Assembly (NCBI RefSeq): GCF_036321535.1
Contig: NC_087436.1
Location: forward strand, 26,848,001 to 26,912,000
Direction of reading: 5' to 3'
Length of the DNA: 64,000 nt
Source: Camelus dromedarius
Taxonomy: Eukaryota
Part shown: positions 1-56,441 of the stretch, in pieces
Position numbering within the stretch: position 1 is the stretch's first letter
How the letters are laid out: every line of letters begins with the position of its first letter
Position numbers and translations under genes: made by a program
The notes under the pieces: model-generated
The model's database searches: none
What the model was told of the DNA's origin: nothing
Seen by the model: only the letters and a program-made list of their open reading frames with translations

Positions 1-207
1 TCAAATTGGGAACCTGGAGCAATTGTAGATCTCACCTTGTGTTTTTCCCATCTCTAAGAAACCACTGTCTTCCATTACTTGATGTCCAGTGTGTTGAGAA
101 GCATTCTTTAATGAATTTTGCTTTTTTTTGAGAGCTGTGGGTTTTTTTTTTCAGGCAGAAAAGTAAATCTGTACCTGTTACTCTATTTTCTTGATAAGCA
201 AGTGTCC
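1..207 (-). mobile_element. Ancient L1 (L1M-type) 5' end relic
   Basis: Reverse complement of aaatctgtacctgttactctattttcttgataagcaagtgtc resembles the old L1M 5' start (..ccaagatggagtaacagggaccagattt..), from memory of the consensus. Confidence 0.4.
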
Positions 208-811
208 CAATGATTTAAATAATATTATTATTTTATGATTACATAAATAATGTTTATTCTAGAAAACTCAAATACAACCAGAAAATGTAGAAAAATTTCC
301 ATTGAAATTTCCTACTCTGAGAATTACCAACTACTATCACTATTAACATATTTTGACTATTCATTTATGCATAAATTTAAGTGTGTGTGTGTACTCATAA
401 ATAGTACTTTATGTAAATGGAACTTTTTTTTGATTTATAATAATGGAACCAATCTTCTATACTCTCCTGCATTATGCTTTCCACATACATAATATATTAT
501 GAATATCCTCAGAGTTATAGCTCTAATTCATTGTAATGATTTTAATTCATTTATTTCTATATTTTAAAACATTACATGGAGCATGATTATACAATTATAC
601 AGTTGTTTTTTTGTACTGATGGAATTCACTTTTTAAAATTCTTGACTCAAGCTAAAGATGAAGCAATAATAATTATTTCATATATATTCTTTCAAAGGGG
701 GATTTTTTTTTTAATGATGGAGTCTGAGAAACAGCTACAAGCCACACTATTCATCAAACTATTTTAAGGATTTTGCTTTTATTCTGAATCAAATAAAATA
801 GTGTTAGAAGG

Positions 812-1725
812 AAATCCATGCAATCGAGTAATAAGTTCTAGTTCTACGGTTGGGTTCTTTAAAAGGAAAAGTTCACTGAGAGAAGTTTCCAGATCATATA
901 TTTAAATGAAAATTCTATGAAACTTGTCCTGTTTGAAATAAATTCTTTAACAAAATTTATTACAGATTAGTTAATGGCACTAAGATAAAATCTAGAATTA
1001 TTGTATTCCATATTACAGTGCAAAAGTATTCCTGAAAAAGTACTACAGTACTACATTATAAAGTATCTCCCTCAGCTAAAGAAGACAGTAACTAAGACTA
1101 TGAACTATTTGGAAATTCTGGTTTATTTAGGCAGTCAAACTTTGTTGAGGGGAGATACTGAAAAATATGACAGGTGATTTCTTAGGATTCCACAGCGCCC
1201 TAAGGAACCAAGGTTGAAATTGTTACTTGACAAGTGTCAGTTTTGTGGCACCTCAGTAAATTAGATGGGACAGTGTCTTGATAGCAGAGGCTGAGCTAAG
1301 TCTGGATTCCTGCCTTCCCTCACTTGCTCTATCCTACAAAATTTAGGGAACTAAATGTATTTTGGGTCTTAGAGCACACTGCAGGTAGTCTGTCAATGAC
1401 TAGTCCAGTAGTGCCAAGCCTCTCTGCATTATTACTCATGGCCAATTCTAAAACCTTTCACCACCAAGCTTCTGGTCACAGCTTACAGTGCCAGGTGTGG
1501 CTCGGAGACTCTGGCTCATTCATTTGCACAGGAATGGTGGTGTCGAGCCCGTATGTGTACTTTAAAAATATTAGTGATCTGACAACTTAAGAGTAATTTG
1601 TTAAATTCACATATAGCAGACTTCGCAAAGTGGTAATAGTATCTTAGACATGTTATACTCAGGAAACTTCCAAGAAAAATAAACCATATAATTCACTAGT
1701 AGAAGGCTATTTGATGGGAGACTAC
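812..1725 (+). mobile_element. Decayed Gypsy-type LTR retrotransposon pol, reverse transcriptase/RNase H part
   Basis: One frame from 1100 reads MNYLEILVYLGSQTLLRGDTEKYDR*FLRIPQRPKEPRLKLLLDKCQFCGTSVN*MG (Gypsy pattern MN..EVLVYLDD...LKLSLDKCQF..SV.Y.GH). After a shift near 1355 it reads CILGLRAHCR*SVND*SSSAKPL (pattern SFLG..GYYRRFV.DYS..AKPL). Confidence 0.75.
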
Positions 1726-1729
1726 TCTG

Positions 1730-2205
1730 GTTACTAGTGGTGCATAAATAATTGCCCCCAAAACTAAGTGCTTCAAATAATCATTTTGTATTGCTCATGA
1801 TTTTGTGGGGCACAGATTTGGAAAGGTCTCAAATCACCCACAGGCTCAAGAAGAACTGGATATTAAACTTGGCTCAGTCTTTCTCAGGGCTGGAAGTTGA
1901 TGATGGCTACTGACTGCTATATGTAGCACAGTCAGCATGTTGTTCTCAGAAAAGTCAGACTTTATAAGGGCAGCTACCTTCCCCATAGCAAAAATCCTTG
2001 GAGAACCAGATGATAGAAGCAGTGATCTAGCCTTGGCAGTCTCATACCATCACTTCTACCATACCTTACTGGTCAAAGAAGTCACAAGGCCTGCCAAAAG
2101 GAAGGAATTGGATTTCAACACTTGATGTAGAGTGAAGAGGTGACATTAAAAAAAAAAAAAAAAAGCATGTGTGATATGGAATATAACTTTATGGCTATTT
2201 TATGG
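1730..2205 (-). mobile_element. MaLR LTR (MLT1F/G/H-like) inserted into the Gypsy relic
   Basis: MLT1 antisense motifs: ccccaaaactaagtgcttcaaataa, tgctcatgattttgtggg, atctagccttggcagtctcataccatcacttctaccata. Confidence 0.7.
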
Positions 2206-2229
2206 CTAAAGTGAGTTAATTTTATCCTT

Positions 2230-3010
2230 ATCACTACAAGAGTGACAGAAATCATATTTTATTATTAGAGCATTGATTCAGATACATTCCCCCACAAACA
2301 GCTTATAGAGCAGATAGTAATGTCTTAGAAATAGCAACCCATAGATCCATACATGCTATATGATCAATCTGGATGTAGGAGAAGAAACAAATATTAGGAT
2401 CAATTAGGGATTAGTTCTTCTGGTATAAAGATATTAATGCACCATAGCTAAAAGCAAACAAACTTGATATTTGTGTCTAAAGCACATAGTAGCAAATATG
2501 GCTCACAAAAGTGTACAATTTAAACCATGTACATCCATAGTAACTAATACCTACCTAGCTTGAATTTATTTATTCATAGTCTCTAGGTTTAGAATAACAG
2601 AATCTTTGAAACCTACTGATTCAAACTATTCAACTCACTGAACCCAGCCACATGTCATTGAAACTGAAAACTCCATTGTGGAAGAGACGATGTAGAGAAT
2701 GTTATAGTCTTTTTATGGATTGTCTACTGGGATCTAGTCCTATTAAGGGAACATTTTTGTAGCTTGCCTAATAGGGAAAATGTATTAAGCATTTTAAATA
2801 TCTGAACCACTCCCTATCATCCTCAAAGGGATCTTGACTAATTTAAAAGAATTTTCAACCATAATGGGAACTCTCTGTCAGAAGTAGGAAAGGCAGGAGA
2901 ATAGGTCCTGGGTTTTTAACTAGATGCATAAATATTTCCTAGGAGAACACTGTTCCATCTTGCTGACGATCCCTCATCAACTCTTCTGTAGAAATCATTG
3001 GGAAGATAAG
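2230..3010 (+). mobile_element. Decayed Gypsy-type integrase
   Basis: EQIVMS*K*QPIDPYMLYDQSG from 2308 (QLVLP..LHD..GH); IRD*FFW at 2403-2423 (RDRFYW); YGLSTGI*SY*G at 2714-2749 (YG.P..IHSDQG); TTPYHPQ at 2806-2826; then MGTL and PHQLFCR. Motifs are in the expected order. Confidence 0.75.
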
Positions 3011-3548
3011 AATAATTTTCTATAGGAATAAATATTTTTTAAGTATAACAATACCCAAAAGTTCAATCTAGGCTAGAATTCACCTAAGAATTTTGACAAT
3101 ATATGCCTATTTATTTCTCAGAATACCTTTGTAGTAGGTACTATTATAATTATTTTACAAATGACATCTCCCTCCCTTAAAACTTTGTTACATAAACCTC
3201 AGTATCTACGTTTACCTGTGCTTTACCGCTCTTTATTAAGTTGGCTACCAAATTTCTGTTTCCAATTAATTTAACTGTAGTCATATAAGAACACGAATAT
3301 TTATAGTTGAGGTCCTATTATAAAAAAGAATATTCCTTGTACTATGTTTTTACATATGGAAATTCTATTGGGAAGAGGTGTTTTAATTTAGTATTTCACG
3401 GAAAATTCATTGTCATACATTATAAAGAGTTAAAATTTATATAAAATCTCTGCCCTTATGGTATATAAGGGGGATATTATTCTGCCCTATTTCATCTCAC
3501 ATGCATTGTGGAGTTTAGTCTACCTACATAACCTATTGACACCACTGA

Positions 3549-4400
3549 TGTAAGAGCCTCTAGACTTCACTGGAGCAGATGTAAGAAGACTTATTTATAA
3601 CCAGTTCTCTAGGTACCAGGGTTATACCACAGAATAAAGGAGTTAAAAACACTGCTTTTTGAGTCTTTGGGAGTAATTCAAGTTGGGTTTGCCTGGTAGT
3701 AAATTCTGAGATATTAGGATTTAGAATGCATGTTAGAGAATGCTCTTTGGTTAAACATCTATGGATAGGAAGAGGAGGAAACAAGACTGATGAAAGAAAA
3801 AAATGTTGCTATGTGATGCTGTGTCAGGAAAGGCTGAAATGTCCCTTCACATTTATTCAATATTGAGACAGGAGGCAAAGTCTTTATAACCATGTTCACC
3901 TATCTATCAGTCATGAATTTGGACTGTCCCAAGAAGGACAGATGATTCTCTTCAGTCAAGGCAAAGCCTAAAGCAGGCTGATGGTTGAATTCCATCAGCC
4001 TGTAGTACCCAGTACCTGGATAGTAAGTCCTTTGTACTTGAAAGAGGATCTAGGCAGCATATTAGACCTACAAAGACATAACCTACAAAGACAGTGGTTA
4101 GAAGAGGAAAGAAGACACTAGGGCAGACTGTTCAATAAGAGACAGCATGAGGCACAGACTAGTAGCAGACAAGAACTTTGCACCTCAGCCCTTGGGGACT
4201 GGAACCAGACTTCCTGTAAGGGGAAGGTAATGTGAGAGACAAAAGGAGCCAAATTCACTGCATGATCCACAAAAGTCAAAAGTCAAGTCCCAACAGAATT
4301 TTAAGGCAAAACAAGAGTCAGTTCAACCGGTATCTGGCAGTTCTCCCCGTGTGTCACCATGAGGTGGAGAGACACCTGAGCAGTGATACGTATAGTATTT
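3549..4400 (-). mobile_element. Probable ancient LTR of unassigned family, interrupted by an LTR16-like element
   Basis: Begins tgtaagagcc at 3549 (minus-strand end ..gctcttaca). GC-richer sequence resumes at 4080-4400. Family not recognised. Confidence 0.25.
3675..4075 (-). mobile_element. ERVL-class LTR, LTR16-like
   Basis: Minus strand reads tgctgcctagatcctctttcaagtacaaaggacttact..., similar to the remembered LTR16 start (gccgcccagatcccccttcagga..gacttatt). Confidence 0.55.
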
Positions 4401-5177
4401 GAGCAATACCAAACTGAATACAAGACTACAGTGATTTCTGCTAATTTGGGGTTATTCTTTGAGATACATCTGGCGGAAAAGGACCTGTTAAATGAGGTTT
4501 GTCATCTCCCCCCAAATGACAGCAGCTTTATCCAAGTAGTAGAAAGAATAAGGGATTCTGTCTTATGTTTTCCTAGGTTAAACAGGTTGAAAATAAATGT
4601 CCAATTCTAATGGTCTTCTTGAACATTTACTATTTTTGTCATAAACAAATGATTACCAGAACAAACAAGTTATGTTATTTAAAGACTATTATAACAATCA
4701 TTGACTTAGGTATTCACTAATAATCAAGAAAAGACATCCTAACACATAATTCAAAATGATCTCACTGAAGTTGATTTAAGGATAATACTGAGATATATTT
4801 CCTACAATTCAAGATTATGTGAGTTCCTTTCAATATGACACTGCCACAGAAAAGAGGGAAACAAACACTCATTTATCTTGTTTTCACACAATATGTAAAA
4901 TCATTCAATTGAAGAACTTTTGATTAAATGGCTAAATTAGAATACTCCCTGAATCAAACACAAAATATCTGAAAGAAAAAAGAAGACTTCTTATAATAAA
5001 ATTACTCCACTGCTTGTATTCCAATTTAATGTAAAGGGATATTTCATTATATTTTCAGGTGAGAAGTTATTGAGTTTCAGGTTTTACATGAATGGGAATA
5101 AACACTATCACCAGATTGAAGATAACTAGTCACTCCTGGTCTTTTGAAACTTTGCAGTACCATATCTGGAAATTTTT

Positions 5178-5220
5178 AACATTCTTTTAATATGTAGCCA
5201 AACATTCTTTTAATATGTAG
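5178..5220. repeat. Direct repeat aacattcttttaatatgtag x2 (23-bp period)
   Basis: Identical 20-mers at 5178-5197 and 5201-5220. Confidence 0.95.
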
Positions 5221-5431
5221 GTTTTCAATAATAATAACCTTTCACTTGATAATTTAAGTTTCCAGACCATTTGGAGGTTTATCTTTCTATGCTTTGAATA
5301 TTTCATTCTGCCCTAAGTAATGAAGAATTTTTTAAAATACAGGAGTCCTGTCTTTGCTACTTCTACCAGAATATACTCCAGTAATAAATAAATAATTTTT
5401 CATACTACATTTGGAAAACATGGGGGATTTC

Positions 5432-5497
5432 TCTACTAATGTATACAATTACATCAGTGAAGAATCTACTAATGTATACAATTACATCACTGAAGAA
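5432..5497. repeat. 33-bp tandem duplication
   Basis: tctactaatgtatacaattacatca(g/c)tgaagaa at 5432-5464 and 5465-5497, one mismatch. Confidence 0.95.
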
Positions 5498-6386
5498 TTA
5501 TATCATTTTATATATATAATTATAACAGAAATGTACAATTATATCATGACTATTCTTAGTATATTTTATATTTATTTCAGATATTATGTCAAGATTAAAA
5601 GACAAATGTTAAAAACGAGGAAAAAAAGGACTAGAATGTGATATAAATTTTATCTGTAATCAATGAAGCATGGTGATGAAAAATACCAAAGCACACATTC
5701 ATTTATTTAAAAAAATTAAATCTAATACAATACACTGTGACTTACTTATTAAGAAGGTAAGATATTTAAAGTACCAATTAAAAGGATATATGGATGTAAA
5801 AATAATACAATCTAATTGCAAGAATGAAGAGTTAGTGGACAAACTTTCTGTATTTTCCTTTGAATAAAAAAAATTAGTCTCTCATTAGTCTAATCTGCCT
5901 TTATCTGTTGCTCAGTTTTGAAAAAGAATGCATGATATATTGAGTGTGTTTTTTTATTTTCCAAACAGCTTAGTGTTAGTATTAATGACTAACCTTAATA
6001 CACTAGGATTTTACCCTTTTTACTTGGTTCAGCAGAAAGACTGCAGAATCAGAAATCACGTAATTCTGATCCCACCACTAACCACCTTTGTTTACACATT
6101 TAAGGACAGATCTTAGAAACTAAATTTAAAAATGGGTTTTGTCCTAGGCATACTAGCAAGAGTGCCCTTTTCTCTGAATGCATTAGAGACACAAACTGAT
6201 AGTGGAACAAGGCCGCTAGTCCAACTCCCTTTAACCAGAAAAAAATTTCTCATGTATTTTTAATAACATGAGATTCTGAGTGTTACTTCTTTTGAAGAAA
6301 GTTCTCTATGTGGTTGTATGATTTGCACGAAATGTAGGCTAAGTCAGAGATGTTTAGAGTCGGGAGAATCTTTAGTGATCTCATTC

Positions 6387-6564
6387 AGTACTTTCAACAC
6401 ATAAGCAGTCATCAACTCAATGGAAAATCTTCATAAAGAGACAGATATCCCAGGTCTGCCTCCTAGAGATTATGGCTCAGTAAGTCTGAATTTGGAGCTA
6501 GAAAATTGTGATTTTTAGAAAAGCTCCTGCAATGAATTGTGGTCAATCACATTGGGAACAACTG
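6387..6564. mobile_element. hAT-Charlie MITE (MER5A-like), apparently inside a MIR
   Basis: agagattatggctcagtaagtctg...aagctcc...ttgggaacaactg resembles MER5A; flanks are MIR-like. Confidence 0.5.
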
Positions 6565-7125
6565 ATCGAGGCTTTTCCTTAGTTTAAGAATGACAAAATT
6601 AATAATCAGAAAAGGAATAACATCTAGGTGGCTGTCTTCTGCCCCCAAGTCAATGCTACATACAGTAGAACTGTCTCTTTATATTTCATTATAATACACA
6701 TCAAAGAAATACATTAATTTGCCACAAGTTAGATGCTTCAATATTGAAAGTTAGAGATTTTATGAATAAGTTTTATAATAAATATTCTTGATATGCATCT
6801 ATGGCAAGAGTACCAGCCAGTTGTGTAACTCATAGACAAGAGCCTTCAGGGTATTCTGATGACATTCCAGAATTTGGTCATCTTCTTGTTTTCCCTATGA
6901 CTAGATGTTGACATTAACTTCTCTAACATAAAGTTTGTATAGAAAAGACAGGTTTCTGTTTCTAAAAGAGCTAGTCATATAAACTTAAAATAACTGCCAT
7001 TTGTTCTGCCCTTTAACAGATTTTCAAATATGTTTATATTTAGCATTTCATTTTTCAGAAACACTCCATGAGGCACATTGATGCTAATGTAAAGGGTACA
7101 ACACCCAAAAGCACATATATACATA

Positions 7126-7146
7126 TGTGTGTGTGTGTGTGTGTGT
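7126..7146. repeat. (TG)10 microsatellite
   Basis: Direct reading. Confidence 0.95.
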
Positions 7147-9579
7147 ATGTGTATTTCTTCTTTCAGAAAGGTAATAAGTGCTCATAGGTATGATATTGTA
7201 GGAAGATCAGGAGTTACAACTTTGTGGTATGACAAGCAGGATTTTCCAAAAATGATTCTGAGCATATACTTGTTTGCCGAGGAATCAGAGGTTTATTCCT
7301 TTCCCTTGGGAAGACACTGCACCTAAATGCTGAAGACGTCATACCCTTGGCTAGAGAAATCTCAACTATTCAGATGAGGGGAATCTAGTTTTCAGATACC
7401 TTCTGTAAATATCTGGTACTTAAACCTCAAAAGCCTGGTACCCAAGGAATCTATTTTTTCTCCTACTGGGATGGCTTTCATATTCACTCTACATGAAAAG
7501 AAAATAACAAGAGAAACAGGATTCATCCTTAGAAATGGAAAACCCACTATAAGTCCAATAGATCGCACACGTATTACCATGTTAATAAAAGAACTGGAGA
7601 TCACATGCCTCTTTTCTTCCTCCTGATTCTTTAATGCTAAGTGCACCCATTGATCCATGTCCAATGACATGGTAAAATTAACCATAAAATCTATTGTCAG
7701 TTAGTTGCCTCCACAAAGAGATCATCATTCCTAGACAGAAGTATTTAATTTTCTCATTCTTTAGTATATATACGAGAAAAAGAACTTAAATTTCCAGAAC
7801 AAAATGTTACATGGAAATTCTTTTTCTTGAAGTCAGAACACAATTGTCCACCATTTCCTATGCAGCAACCTATTTGAAGCCCTATAATCAAGATTTTCTT
7901 TGTCAGTCCTTTGAAAAATCTGACACTTTTTCACAAGAAAAAAAGTCCACATTCTTCAACTAGTAAACTGCAGCAACAAAGACTTGAGACAGAATCAAAA
8001 GATGGTCTTCTGTTCAGGCTCAGATGTTTCAGAGTGAATGGGATGGAGATGTGGATGGTAATGTAGACTTGAGAAAGGGAGAGGTTAGGTGCTCTCTAAT
8101 TGTTTTCCTAACAGTGATAACAGCAACATCTTTATTTAATGATTTCCTTCTAATAATTACTAAAAGACCAAGGTGACCTTACTCAACTGATCATTAAATT
8201 TTCCCTAGAGTTAATAAAAACCTCCTTTTTTTCTGAATTAGTGTATTGGCTTCAAAATACAGTGTCACTATTTAATTTTCACTATTAATTGTAAATATTA
8301 AAAATAAATATTGTTGCCTATTATTTAAGCAAATCACACTGTTGGACTTTCTGAGGCAGTGGTTAATAAGCAAATGGTAGATAAAACATCATTTTCACTC
8401 CTGTGAGTCTGCATGGATTAACTTTGCAAACTCTGACCTCAGCCACCGTCATTTCCATAGGCCTCACTGGACACAGGCCAAGGAGAAGCAGCATTATTTC
8501 AAACATATGAACTAGGAACAATTCAATATACACGTTTAGTCCCTCTCCAATCTTCTGGGTTCATCAGAACAAGGAAGCCCTCCAAAGTTCACACACCTAT
8601 AGACAGGGCAGCCCCTCTTAGAGAACTCCTTTGTGAGTCTCCCTGAGAAGTCTCATTAGAGATCCAAGAAAACCTGTCTCAATTTCAGGATACAAGTTGA
8701 CAGAAGTTATTTCAGTTGATCTCGCTGAATGCCACAGAGAATAAAACTCAGAATTTTCTTATCCTGAGATCATGGGACAATTCTGAGCTTCCAGTTTATC
8801 CTCTACAATTCAGAAGCTATATCACATTTCCATTGTGTTGAACTTTCAAATAAATTAGGCCATTTAACATTAAAGTTAGCATTAGAATATTTGTTTGGAA
8901 TCTTGCTGTCTTAGCCATTAACTGGGTATATAACTATTCTGAAATTGCTGAATGTCCCTGACACATTCTACTTATCTGTAAAATAGAGAACTAAATATTA
9001 TTACTAACTAAAGGTTCATCTTAGGTCCAAAAATATTACCAACATCCACTTTAAATCTCAACAATCTATCAATTATTTCTTAGGTTCAGACTATCCATAT
9101 GTCCAGTTCATATTCCAGCAGCATCTTAATGGTCACTTACTCTAGCTTTCTCCCTCCCAGTGTTATTCACAGTGAGGTCGGAAATAGTTCTGTAAGGCAT
9201 TTCTAATCATGCCATTTTCCCTCAAATATTCTTAAGTCATTGGTTAATTTTTTTCAATCTCCAGAGGTAGTCAACCCCTAAATTCCTTACTAATTAATGC
9301 CTGATTACACCCACAAATACTTCACATTGCTCAGTGATTACATCATATGTTTGTCCTTGCTTATGGTCTTTGAGGCAGTTCCTGATCACACTCAGAATGT
9401 TTTTGCCCTTCACCATTTATTTGCCTAACTTTTACACTTTCTTCAGGATTCTGCTCAATAATTATTTCCTATTGGGAGTAACAAACTTCTTCAAAACCTT
9501 CTAAGTTGGAACTTACCCTGTTATATGTTCACATAGAACTTTTTTTCTCTCTTTTTTTTTTACGTTGGCCATTATTTTT

Positions 9580-10198
9580 TGTGGGTTCGTCACCAGTTGT
9601 GGGTTCTGGCCAGCAGAAGTCCCACCGAGACGGAATGAATTACTCAAGACTCTGTGGAAAAGTCAAGAGAGCGAGAGGGAGTGTAGGGGGTGGGGAAGCC
9701 AACTCCCTGAGCCTCTCAAATCTCCCATATTTATTGAGTACAGTCAAAGGAGGAATGCAGAAATTTAGGGAAGGACAGGGTGGGATCACAATGAGTACAA
9801 AGGCTTTGTTTATTGTTGGTGTTTGGCTCAAGGTCAGAAGACCCTTTTGGTGAATCATGTTCTTGTTGAGCCTTACAGCTTATCAGGGCAGAACGTATGA
9901 GAATCAGCTGCTTAACAACTTGGACTCAGGCGGCTGTGCCTGTCTTAGGTTGCCCCCCTCAGGGGATCTTACCCGTCATTGGCTAACTAGCCTTCTAACC
10001 TCTGAGTCTGCAGCTTTTTACCATTCCAGCCCAAGGCTGTTCTGGGGATAGAAGACTAACAGCAGGCACACCCAGCGTTTATAACCGGGGGCCTTGGTCA
10101 TTGCTAAAACCTCAAGGCAGTTACTAAGCACATCTTCTTTAAGGAGATAAGCGGCTTGGATCTGTTACAATTTGTTAACCCAATCATGGGCTCCCACA
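9580..10198 (-). mobile_element. Young retroviral solo LTR (class II/ERVK-like), 619 bp
   Basis: Inverted termini TGTGGG...CCCACA; perfect 6-bp TSD ATTTTT (9574-9579, 10199-10204); minus-strand AATAAA at 9730-9735; about 10 retained CpGs. Confidence 0.85.
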
Positions 10199-10730
10199 AT
10201 TTTTATTTTTTTCTTCCAGTTTTATTGGTTATATAATTAGCATAGAACACTGTATAAGTTTAAGGTGTACAGCATAATGACTCAGCATATGTATATTCTG
10301 AAATGATTACCACAATATATTTAGTTAATATCCATCACACCAAATTGTCACAAATTTTTTTCCTTTTGATGAGAGCTTTTAGGATTTACTCTCTTAGCAA
10401 CTTTCAAATATACCATACAACAGTGTTGACTACAGTCATCATATACATTACATTCCTGGGAGCTACTTGTCTTATAACCCGGAAATCTGTAGCTCTTACT
10501 CCTCATTCCTTACCCCCAGACTTCGGCAATCACAAATCTGATCTTTATTTCTATCAGGGTTTTTGTTTTTTTTTTCATTTCACTTATAAGAGAGATCATG
10601 CAGCATTTGCCTTTCTCTGACTTATTTCACTTAGCATAATGCTCTCAAGGTCCACCCGTATTGCTGTAAATGGCAAGATTTCCATTTTTTATGGTAAAGT
10701 AACATTCCATTGTATATATACACCATATTT
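10199..10730 (-). mobile_element. L1 3' end (L1MA9-like)
   Basis: tataagtttaaggtgtacagcataatg...gaaatgattaccacaat...cttatttcacttagcataatg; the T-rich tail continues left of the LTR. Confidence 0.75.
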
Positions 10731-10761
10731 TCTTTTCTTTTTTAGTTTAATCTCTATATCT

Positions 10762-10860
10762 TCTTTTTATTGATGTATAATACTTACAATTTTGTATTTG
10801 TACAAGATAGTGATTCAATATTTTAAACCTTACAAAATGATGAACGTGATGAGTCTAGTC
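10762..10860 (-). mobile_element. Short L1 3' tip
   Basis: tttttttattgatgtataat...atagtgattcaata...aatgatgaacgtgatgagtctagt. Confidence 0.45.
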
Positions 10861-11054
10861 TATGGTATTCCTATGACCTCATGCTGTCACCCCAGAGACC
10901 ACCACAAGTCAAAGCCCTCACCCTCTGACAATCTCAGTCCCTCTGTGACATCCTGGCTTTCTTAATAATTAGTAGATCCCAAATTCAGAACTCAAGAAAC
11001 AACTTAAGATTGTATGCTGTCACACATAATGATCTATATTCTCTTTTGTTGGCT

Positions 11055-11087
<33 letters not shown>
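11055..11087. repeat. (TAC)11 microsatellite
   Basis: Direct reading. Confidence 0.95.
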
Positions 11088-11089
<2 letters not shown>

Positions 11090-11999
11090 AAACAACAATA
11101 TTAATACATTTTGAGATGGACCAAATTATATTTTCCAAATGTGTCTTCAAGAAATTCTGTAGTAACGGATGAAATTACCTCTTAGATAAAAGAAAGGAGG
11201 ATGGAAAAACTAGCCTCACCAAGGGCTCAATGCACAATATAACTTCATCTCCCTGATTCAAAATAACTTCAAGATAAGTAGCACAATGTTGCCAGTACAA
11301 CCTATAGGTCCAAATTTAGTCTATTTTGACTCTTAACAGTAAGTCCTGTAAGTTCATCTAAAAGGACAACAATACATGAAGCCAACACATTTGAAAGGAT
11401 TCAGTCATTTTTGTAAAGAGGTCAAATCTAGTTATAACCAATAATAAAATAATTCAACTTATTCTAAAAACAGCTGAATCATAGAGTAGAATTTGAAATT
11501 AATTTTTAAATGTTAATTTTTATCAGTGATCATGGCTACATATGCAGTAAAATCTATTACCTAAAACCAGTGGATTCCATATTGAAAGATAAAGTTGGAA
11601 TATTAACTCATCTGTAACACTGAATTCCACAGACCATGACTGACAAATTAGACTTGTTTTTAAGGTCAAGAAAATTAGGAAATTCTTATTCTTGAGAAAA
11701 TACAGTTATTTGTACTTGTGTGATTAGTAGTTATATGTAGGTTTTCTTTAGAGTTTTTTTTTTTTTTTTTGAATAATGTCTCCACCTAAAAAGTATTTAT
11801 TTGGAGGCAATGGTTTCTGAATAGTTTAAGCACAAACAGGCCCAAGTGATTTTTATTATTTAGATTCAAGATTGAAACTGGACATTATATGTGAAATTTT
11901 TCCATTTAACTTTTGTAAGAAAGGAAGTTTTGCGAGAAATCTGATGGGTGGGACCTTGTGCCATGATTTTTTAGCCACTTCTATGGTTTAATTGAAAGA

Positions 12000-12210
12000 A
12001 TGAGGACTTTGAGGTCAATTACACATGGCTTTAAATCTTTCCTCTACTTACTGTTTATGTGAATTTAGGCAAATTATACCCTTTTTCATAGTCTCCACCT
12101 CATCTTTTGGATAAGAATAAAATACTTAACATTGTAATTTATATTATTAAAAGATACAATGTATGAATAGGCCTAATACACAGAAGTAGCTCTTCACATG
12201 TTAGCCTATC
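12000..12210 (+). mobile_element. MIR SINE (degenerate)
   Basis: ggactttgaggtca...tttaaatc..ctctacttactg..tgtgaatttaggcaaatta; MIR core pattern. Confidence 0.5.
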
Positions 12211-13407: not shown

Positions 13408-13485
13408 GGGGAGTGGATATAGCTCAGTGGTAGAGCACAAGCTTAGTATGTACCGGTCCTGGGTTCAATAGTACCTCTATTAAAG
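13408..13485 (+). mobile_element. tRNA-derived SINE (camelid Vic-1-like)
   Basis: ggggagtggatatagctcagtggtagag...ctgggttcaat: A box TAGCTCAGTGG and partial B box GGTTCAAT, A-rich end, degenerate TSD aaaatgctgatta (13395-13407) / aacatgctcatta (13486-13498). Confidence 0.8.
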
Positions 13486-24626: not shown

Positions 24627-25652
24627 TTTTTTAAACATTTTTTATTGATTTATAATCATTTTACCATGTTGTGTCAAATTCCAGTGTAGAGCACAATTTT
24701 TCAGTTATACATGAACATATATATATTCATTGTCACATTTTTTTCTCTGTGAGCTACCATAAGATTTTGTGTATATATCCCTGTGCTATACAGTATAATC
24801 TTGTTTATATATTCTACAATTTTGAAATCCTGTCTATCCCTTCCCACCCTCCGCCCCCTTGGCAACCACAAGTTTGTACTCTATATCTATGAGTCTATTT
24901 CTGTTTTGTATTTATGCTTTGTTTTTTTTTGTTTTTGTTTTTGTTTTTTAGATTCCACATATGAGTGCTTTCATGTGGTATTTTTCTTTCTCTTTCTGGC
25001 TTACTTCACTTAGAATGACATTCTCCAGGAGCATCCATGTTGCTGCAAATGGTGTCATGCTGCCGGTTTTTATGGCTGAGTAATATTCCATTGTATAAAT
25101 AGACCACAGCTTCTTTATCCAGTCACCTGTTGATGGACATTTAGGCTGTTTCCATGTTTTGGCTATTGTAAACAGTGCTGCTATGAACATTGGGGTGCAG
25201 GTGTCATCCTGAAGTAGATTTCCTTCTGGATATAAGCCCAGGAGTGGGATTCCTGGGTCATATGGTAAGTCTATTCCTAGTCTTTTGAGGAATCTCCACA
25301 CTGTTTTCCATAGTGGCTGCACCAAACTGCATTCCCACCAGCAGTGTAGTAGGGTTCCCCTTTCTCCACAGCCTCTCCAGCATTTGTCATTTGTGGATTT
25401 TTGAATGATGGCCATTCTGAGTGGTGTGAGGTGATACCTCATTGTAGTTTTGATTTGCATTTCTCTGATAATTAGTGATACTGAGCATTTTTTCATGTGT
25501 CTGTTGACCATTTGTATGTCTTCCTTGGAGAATTGCTTGTTTAGGTCTTCTGCCCATTTTTGGATTGGGTTGTTTATTTTTTTCTTATTAAGTCGTATGA
25601 GCTGCTTATATATTCTGGAGATCAAGCCTTTGTCGGTTTCATTTGCAAAAAT
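24627..25652 (-). mobile_element. Young 5'-truncated L1 (ORF2 C-terminus plus 3'UTR)
   Basis: Uninterrupted 225-aa ORF 24948-25625 with the L1 ORF2 Cys-rich motif [18 protein letters not shown]; perfect 19-bp TSD ttatgaatgtgatataata (24608-24626, 25653-25671). Confidence 0.95.

Positions 25653-55155: not shown

Positions 55156-56441
<1,286 letters not shown>

Follow-up and report, generated by a model that had tools for sequence, protein, structure and literature searches.

Within a capsid, the RNA of a Gypsy element is copied to DNA by reverse transcriptase (RT) and RNase H, and a DDE integrase then inserts the product. In mammals such elements are described as a small fraction of the genome, with MamGyp-int and X1_LR-X4_LR representing human Gypsy internal sequences (PMC5753468), and mammalian remains of Metaviridae are reported to be rare and fragmented (PMC3670739). 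Camelid genomes are listed with 15-56 Gypsy-class candidates each (PMC8605555). Elements of this kind gave rise to the PNMA genes of mammals, one of which, PNMA2, has been traced to the gag of MamGyp-int (bioRxiv 2023.02.09.527862). PNMA-type metaviruses are reported from reptiles, fish and amphibians (PMC11011659), and Gypsy12_DR-like elements with a PNMA-type gag are called Barthez, a label that we take from a table in PMC3670739 rather than from a comparison of named elements. That paper, in the text available, assigns PNMA to the Barthez lineage and proposes one therian origin from fragmented remains; another account proposes a Gypsy12_DR-related retrotransposition after the marsupial split, and its available text describes the marsupial PNMA genes as being without pol and LTRs (PMC3789554). 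Among the literature titles covered, a scope that leaves Dfam and Repbase entries outside, none was devoted to pol remnants of MamGyp; the supplements of PMC11011659 and PMC3670739 may hold relevant elements.

The window that we analysed, a stretch of 64,000 nucleotides from Camelus dromedarius, carries near its start a dead Gypsy-type remnant that is genuine and inactive, has lost part of its sequence, and belongs to a previously catalogued kind. Comparison of its protein remnants indicates that it is very probably what is left, after internal deletion, of a Ty3/Gypsy (Metaviridae) LTR retrotransposon belonging to the PNMA-capsid lineage. Using phmmer to compare frame 2 of positions 1061-3010 with 1.84 billion proteins, we obtained 12 matches at E<=0.001, of which seven fell on the RT piece and carried RVT_1, four on an LTR-like insert, and one (P0001) on 1396-1579. 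No retroviral or LINE protein was among these matches, and all seven RT matches (7/7) belong to one Gypsy lineage rather than to retroviral, LINE or Copia RTs, in agreement with the first-pass annotation, which had called the region Gypsy pol. Frameshift-aware alignment resolved three colinear blocks on the plus strand, an RT block to the left of the insert (1100-1442) and blocks from the integrase zinc domain (2290-2429) and core (2714-2832) to its right, so that RT precedes integrase and matches lie on both sides of the insert, as had been proposed. Spacing was within 10 bases of that in the reference P0016 at five of six intervals. The tile-strand score was 162.2 here and at most 57.2 in the 40 others in the window, the chain behind it including spurious short blocks; those within the insert were rejected as artefacts of cheap gaps. 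What did not survive was the continuous 2.2-kb run of RT, RNase H and integrase, as statistically supported sequence amounts to ~600 bases in the three blocks; RNase H is mostly missing, as is half of RT. The proposed ends at 812 and 3010 are likewise without support, and neither 852-1099 nor 2833-3010 was confirmed by alignment. Single-frame Pfam scans left RT and rve undetected in all six frames, and a word-index search with the RT piece returned no match.

The RT block (1100-1442, plus strand) comprises the second half of the palm and the thumb, corresponds to residues 500-616 of P0016, and is interrupted by stops and frameshifts. It scores 135.0 half-bits, the highest of 60 shuffles reaching 55.1, and the thumb alone was equalled in 0/500 shuffles. 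Its phmmer matches range from E 7e-7 to 9e-4, and tblastn gives E 1e-9 for a match that begins earlier, at 1073. Identity to P0016 is 42/108 residues, over a length of 342 bases versus 348 expected. The motifs LVYLGS (1118-1135) and LKLLLDKCQFC (1214-1246) lie where they had been reported; the thumb motif given as LG....R..V.D.S..AKPL is also present, with a spacer one residue longer, and because of this difference the pattern as first written gave no match. The aspartates of YxDD have been lost, and the first half of RT was found neither by profile alignments against shuffles nor by spacing. A PDB search with the RT piece found no solved relative; the best solved relatives of P0016 are Ty3 Gag-Pol structures (PDB 7q5b and 4ol8, E 1e-100), compared with E 1e-29 for the best retroviral RT.

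Upstream of RT, 19 codons at 795-851 (plus strand) offer a weak, borderline hint of a protease active site, equalled in 1/100 and 4/200 shuffles with two profiles and in 131/500 with a third. This piece lies 249 bases from RT versus 1329 expected and, if it is real, ~1080 bases are missing. Two further features raised with the original call, gag and a pair of LTRs, were not found in the window: the gag profile stayed at shuffle level in 32/32 tile-strands, and positions 1-12000 contain no long direct repeat. As only ~800 bases of the window lie upstream, the 5' part of the element may be outside it.

With regard to integrase, the first part of the zinc-binding (H2C2) region aligns at 2290-2429 (plus strand), where it scored 50.9 (0/500 shuffles) and 46.6 (1/500) in restricted ranges, a first profile giving only 15/300; its histidines have been lost. 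The core block (2714-2832, plus strand; P0016 residues 1064-1105) ends in TTPYHPQ and scores 69.0, the highest of 100 shuffles reaching 54.4. The 28 relatives extending over this part are identical to it at 14-22 of 31-36 residues, and the catalytic aspartate has been lost. All four integrase motifs of the first-pass annotation could be located, LYDQSG at 2356-2373, IRD*FFW at 2403-2423, YGL..I*SY*G at 2714-2749 and TTPYHPQ at 2806-2826. The sequence between zinc domain and core (2430-2713, plus strand) is colinear by length only (291 versus 285 bases expected), its alignment being no better than shuffles (239/500, 379/1000). A possible continuation of integrase at 2833-3010 (plus strand) does not beat shuffles either (282/500, 476/1000), and a short MGTL motif stands at the expected place there by eye only.

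The sequence between the thumb and the insert (1443-1722, plus strand) may contain the connection region and the first part of RNase H, with a motif hint at 1653-1709 (10/18 identical, 45/500 shuffles) at a spacing of 211 versus 219 bases. RT and integrase follow the reported order; RNase H as a domain was not confirmed, with 0 hits in Pfam and a best local match equalled in 319/500 shuffles. The colinear (global) test with three profiles was reached by 371, 437 and 11 of 2000 shuffles. Later RNase H motifs are absent, and the spacing leaves no room for them: with the insert set aside, the hint lies 122 bases from the zinc domain versus 708 expected, so that ~590 bases adjoining the insert have gone, a loss that covers the greater part of RNase H and linker. 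At 1552-1722 an alternative RNase H register scored 3 and 1 of 1000 with anchors chosen by eye; it is incompatible with the register above, both appear plausible, and we put forward neither as established. With either register, the space is too short for RNase H together with the linker. We rejected an RNase H-like match at 2579-2638 (1/500), which is out of order and within the integrase spacing, and a direct step from thumb to linker that omits RNase H was not supported (111/500 shuffles). Sliding-window tests placed none of five weak segments at its expected position.

The LTR-like insertion spans 1723-2237 (~500 bases), with approximate ends, the right one between 2200 and 2237, and it resembles an LTR of MLT1/MaLR type. 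It contains no supported Gypsy match. Four unrelated short predicted proteins match 1772-2200, with identities of 40/55, 29/41 and 64/113 and, for the fourth, only 33/84, and no second copy of the insert occurs within the window. Its flanks share one exact 5-base repeat among ~1000 pairs tried, which is chance level, and no target-site duplication was established. Judged by position only, the Gypsy part would be older than the insert.

These features at the insert bear on whether the two sides belong together. Were the RT and integrase pieces separate Gypsy insertions, or parts of a rearranged copy, their junction would be the gap at the LTR, and it is exactly at the insert that ~590 bases are missing; the failure to establish a target-site duplication and the chance-level sequence between the blocks point the same way. 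However, the two pieces share a strand, stand in the correct order and match the same lineage, and mammalian Gypsy remnants are rare according to PMC5753468. We therefore consider two origins improbable and treat the pieces as one internally deleted copy.

The first-pass annotation had missed the link to a particular lineage, which is new here: on protein similarity, the nearest living relatives of this copy appear to be elements of fish, amphibians and turtles. A PNMA-type capsid is present in 94/120 relatives of P0012, which, where named, are fish and amphibian polyproteins; two of the seven RT matches are named turtle proteins, and for each of the seven there is a relative at 59-91% identity that carries a PNMA capsid. 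When 200 proteins were scored singly, turtle elements were among the top RT-block scores (135-136), and a distant outgroup RT-RNase H from a viral contig scored 33 versus a shuffle mean of 34. The proteins compared were gathered outward from the initial matches and include one outgroup, with no named chromovirus, Gmr1, Mag or Osvaldo reference among those scored. The turtle element P0209 encodes PNMA, RT, RH, H2C2 and rve domains. As the window yielded neither gag nor paired LTRs, a PNMA-type gag is inferred from the relatives.

An alternative is that the fossil belongs to another Gypsy clade, such as chromovirus/sushi or Gmr1, and merely resembles the PNMA lineage. Even the best relatives are no more than ~40% identical, and in a tree of 36 rows, which like the comparison set contains no other clades by name, the fossil sits on a very long branch and falls within no supported set. 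Nevertheless, the unbiased search of the whole library gave this lineage alone among the RT matches. In Gmr1 elements integrase is placed before RT, whereas here it follows. We consider membership of another clade very improbable, and the comparisons suggest that the copy is probably of the MamGyp/PNMA lineage.

Set beside the described systems, the locus resembles MamGyp-int and X1_LR-X4_LR (Repbase) in being the decayed interior of a Gypsy element in a placental genome, a likeness to MamGyp-int that is one of description and not of sequence comparison with this copy. The RT-thumb and integrase blocks of Gypsy12_DR-like fish, amphibian and turtle elements (P0209, P0045) align with it in order and at near-equal spacing; those relatives are intact, whereas the fossil has no gag within the window and has lost its catalytic residues, half of RT and the greater part of RNase H. 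Domesticated PNMA genes, which would share the same parental lineage, retain an open gag frame, whereas this locus consists of pol fragments only, with no open frame.

The remnant is plainly decayed. Stops number 57, 49 and 44 in the three frames, the longest stop-free run is 96 codons, and the region contains no ORF of 100 aa, the long open frame expected of a domesticated Gypsy gene thus being absent. With every frame broken and the catalytic motifs of RT and integrase lost, the earlier description of the locus as non-functional is borne out. Three RNA-recorded runs contain part of the stretch (shares 0.36, 0.35 and 0.08), which does not amount to evidence of expression. Within 800-3100, 99-100% of sampled words were found in 14/24 listed runs, making an assembly artefact unlikely; 11 of the run rows bear a possible-source mark, which one study (P4) lacks.

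We propose that an early ancestor of the placentals would have acquired the element in its germ line, that an MLT1-type LTR may later have inserted inside its RNase H, that the first half of RT and ~590 bases adjoining the insert would have been lost, and that the locus has presumably decayed neutrally since, making no working protein. P0001 matches 1396-1579 at 42/61 residues, which suggests that a similar copy exists elsewhere; the DNA behind P0001 was not found in metagenome contigs. In a simulation of neutral change, ~70% protein identity corresponds to ~85% DNA identity. The identities of P0001 and of the insert proteins fit orthologous sites in other mammals, and the insertion may be of pan-eutherian age. 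The P0001 match might instead reflect a remnant kept through co-option as a regulatory element or non-coding exon, which we regard as the least probable of the explanations considered and most improbable in itself: 42/61 corresponds to ~85% DNA identity under neutral change, the LTR insert stands at the same level (40/55, 29/41), so that the Gypsy part is not better conserved than the insert, and there is no Rfam match. Neutral decay of a dead copy is the reading that we retain.

P0001, P0003, P0004, P0007 and P0008 are short predicted proteins that are apparently spurious gene calls on mammalian repeat DNA. The window as a whole reads as mammalian non-coding DNA, with a GC content of 26-40%, a GAPDH-like fragment and no Rfam match. 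The fragment is a processed pseudogene at 55175-56417 (plus strand), with Gp_dh_C at 55893-56219 (E 7e-20). A 234-codon open frame at 24948-25652 (minus strand) has no Pfam match at E 0.001 and resembles the end of LINE-1 ORF2. A tRNA-like SINE head at 13409-13480, whose 18-base core occurs once in the window and which ARAGORN did not call, is assumed to be of camelid type. At 3460-4560, a short purine run (3467-3474) is followed by GC-richer, LTR-like sequence with no second copy in the window, which by its look may include an ERVL-type LTR and possibly also the 3' LTR of the fossil. Another GC-richer stretch at 9560-10200, also with no second copy in the window, resembles an ERV LTR. A 33-base tandem duplication (97% match) lies at 5432-5498 and a (TAC)n run at 11055-11089.

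Apart from its value for dating, the locus is a matter of ordinary repeat annotation. A copy in which both RT and integrase of the PNMA-capsid lineage can still be read is, however, a dating marker: whether placentals and marsupials carry it at the same site would date the last movement of the lineage, on which two papers disagree. It is conceivable, if doubtful, that this is a pol-bearing copy of the family that gave rise to the eutherian PNMA genes, its RT and integrase undescribed, that inserted after the placental-marsupial split. If so, it would be direct evidence of a lineage still transposing in the eutherian stem, and would favour separate marsupial and eutherian insertions, as put forward in the available text of PMC3789554, over the single therian domestication from dead remains put forward in that of PMC3670739.
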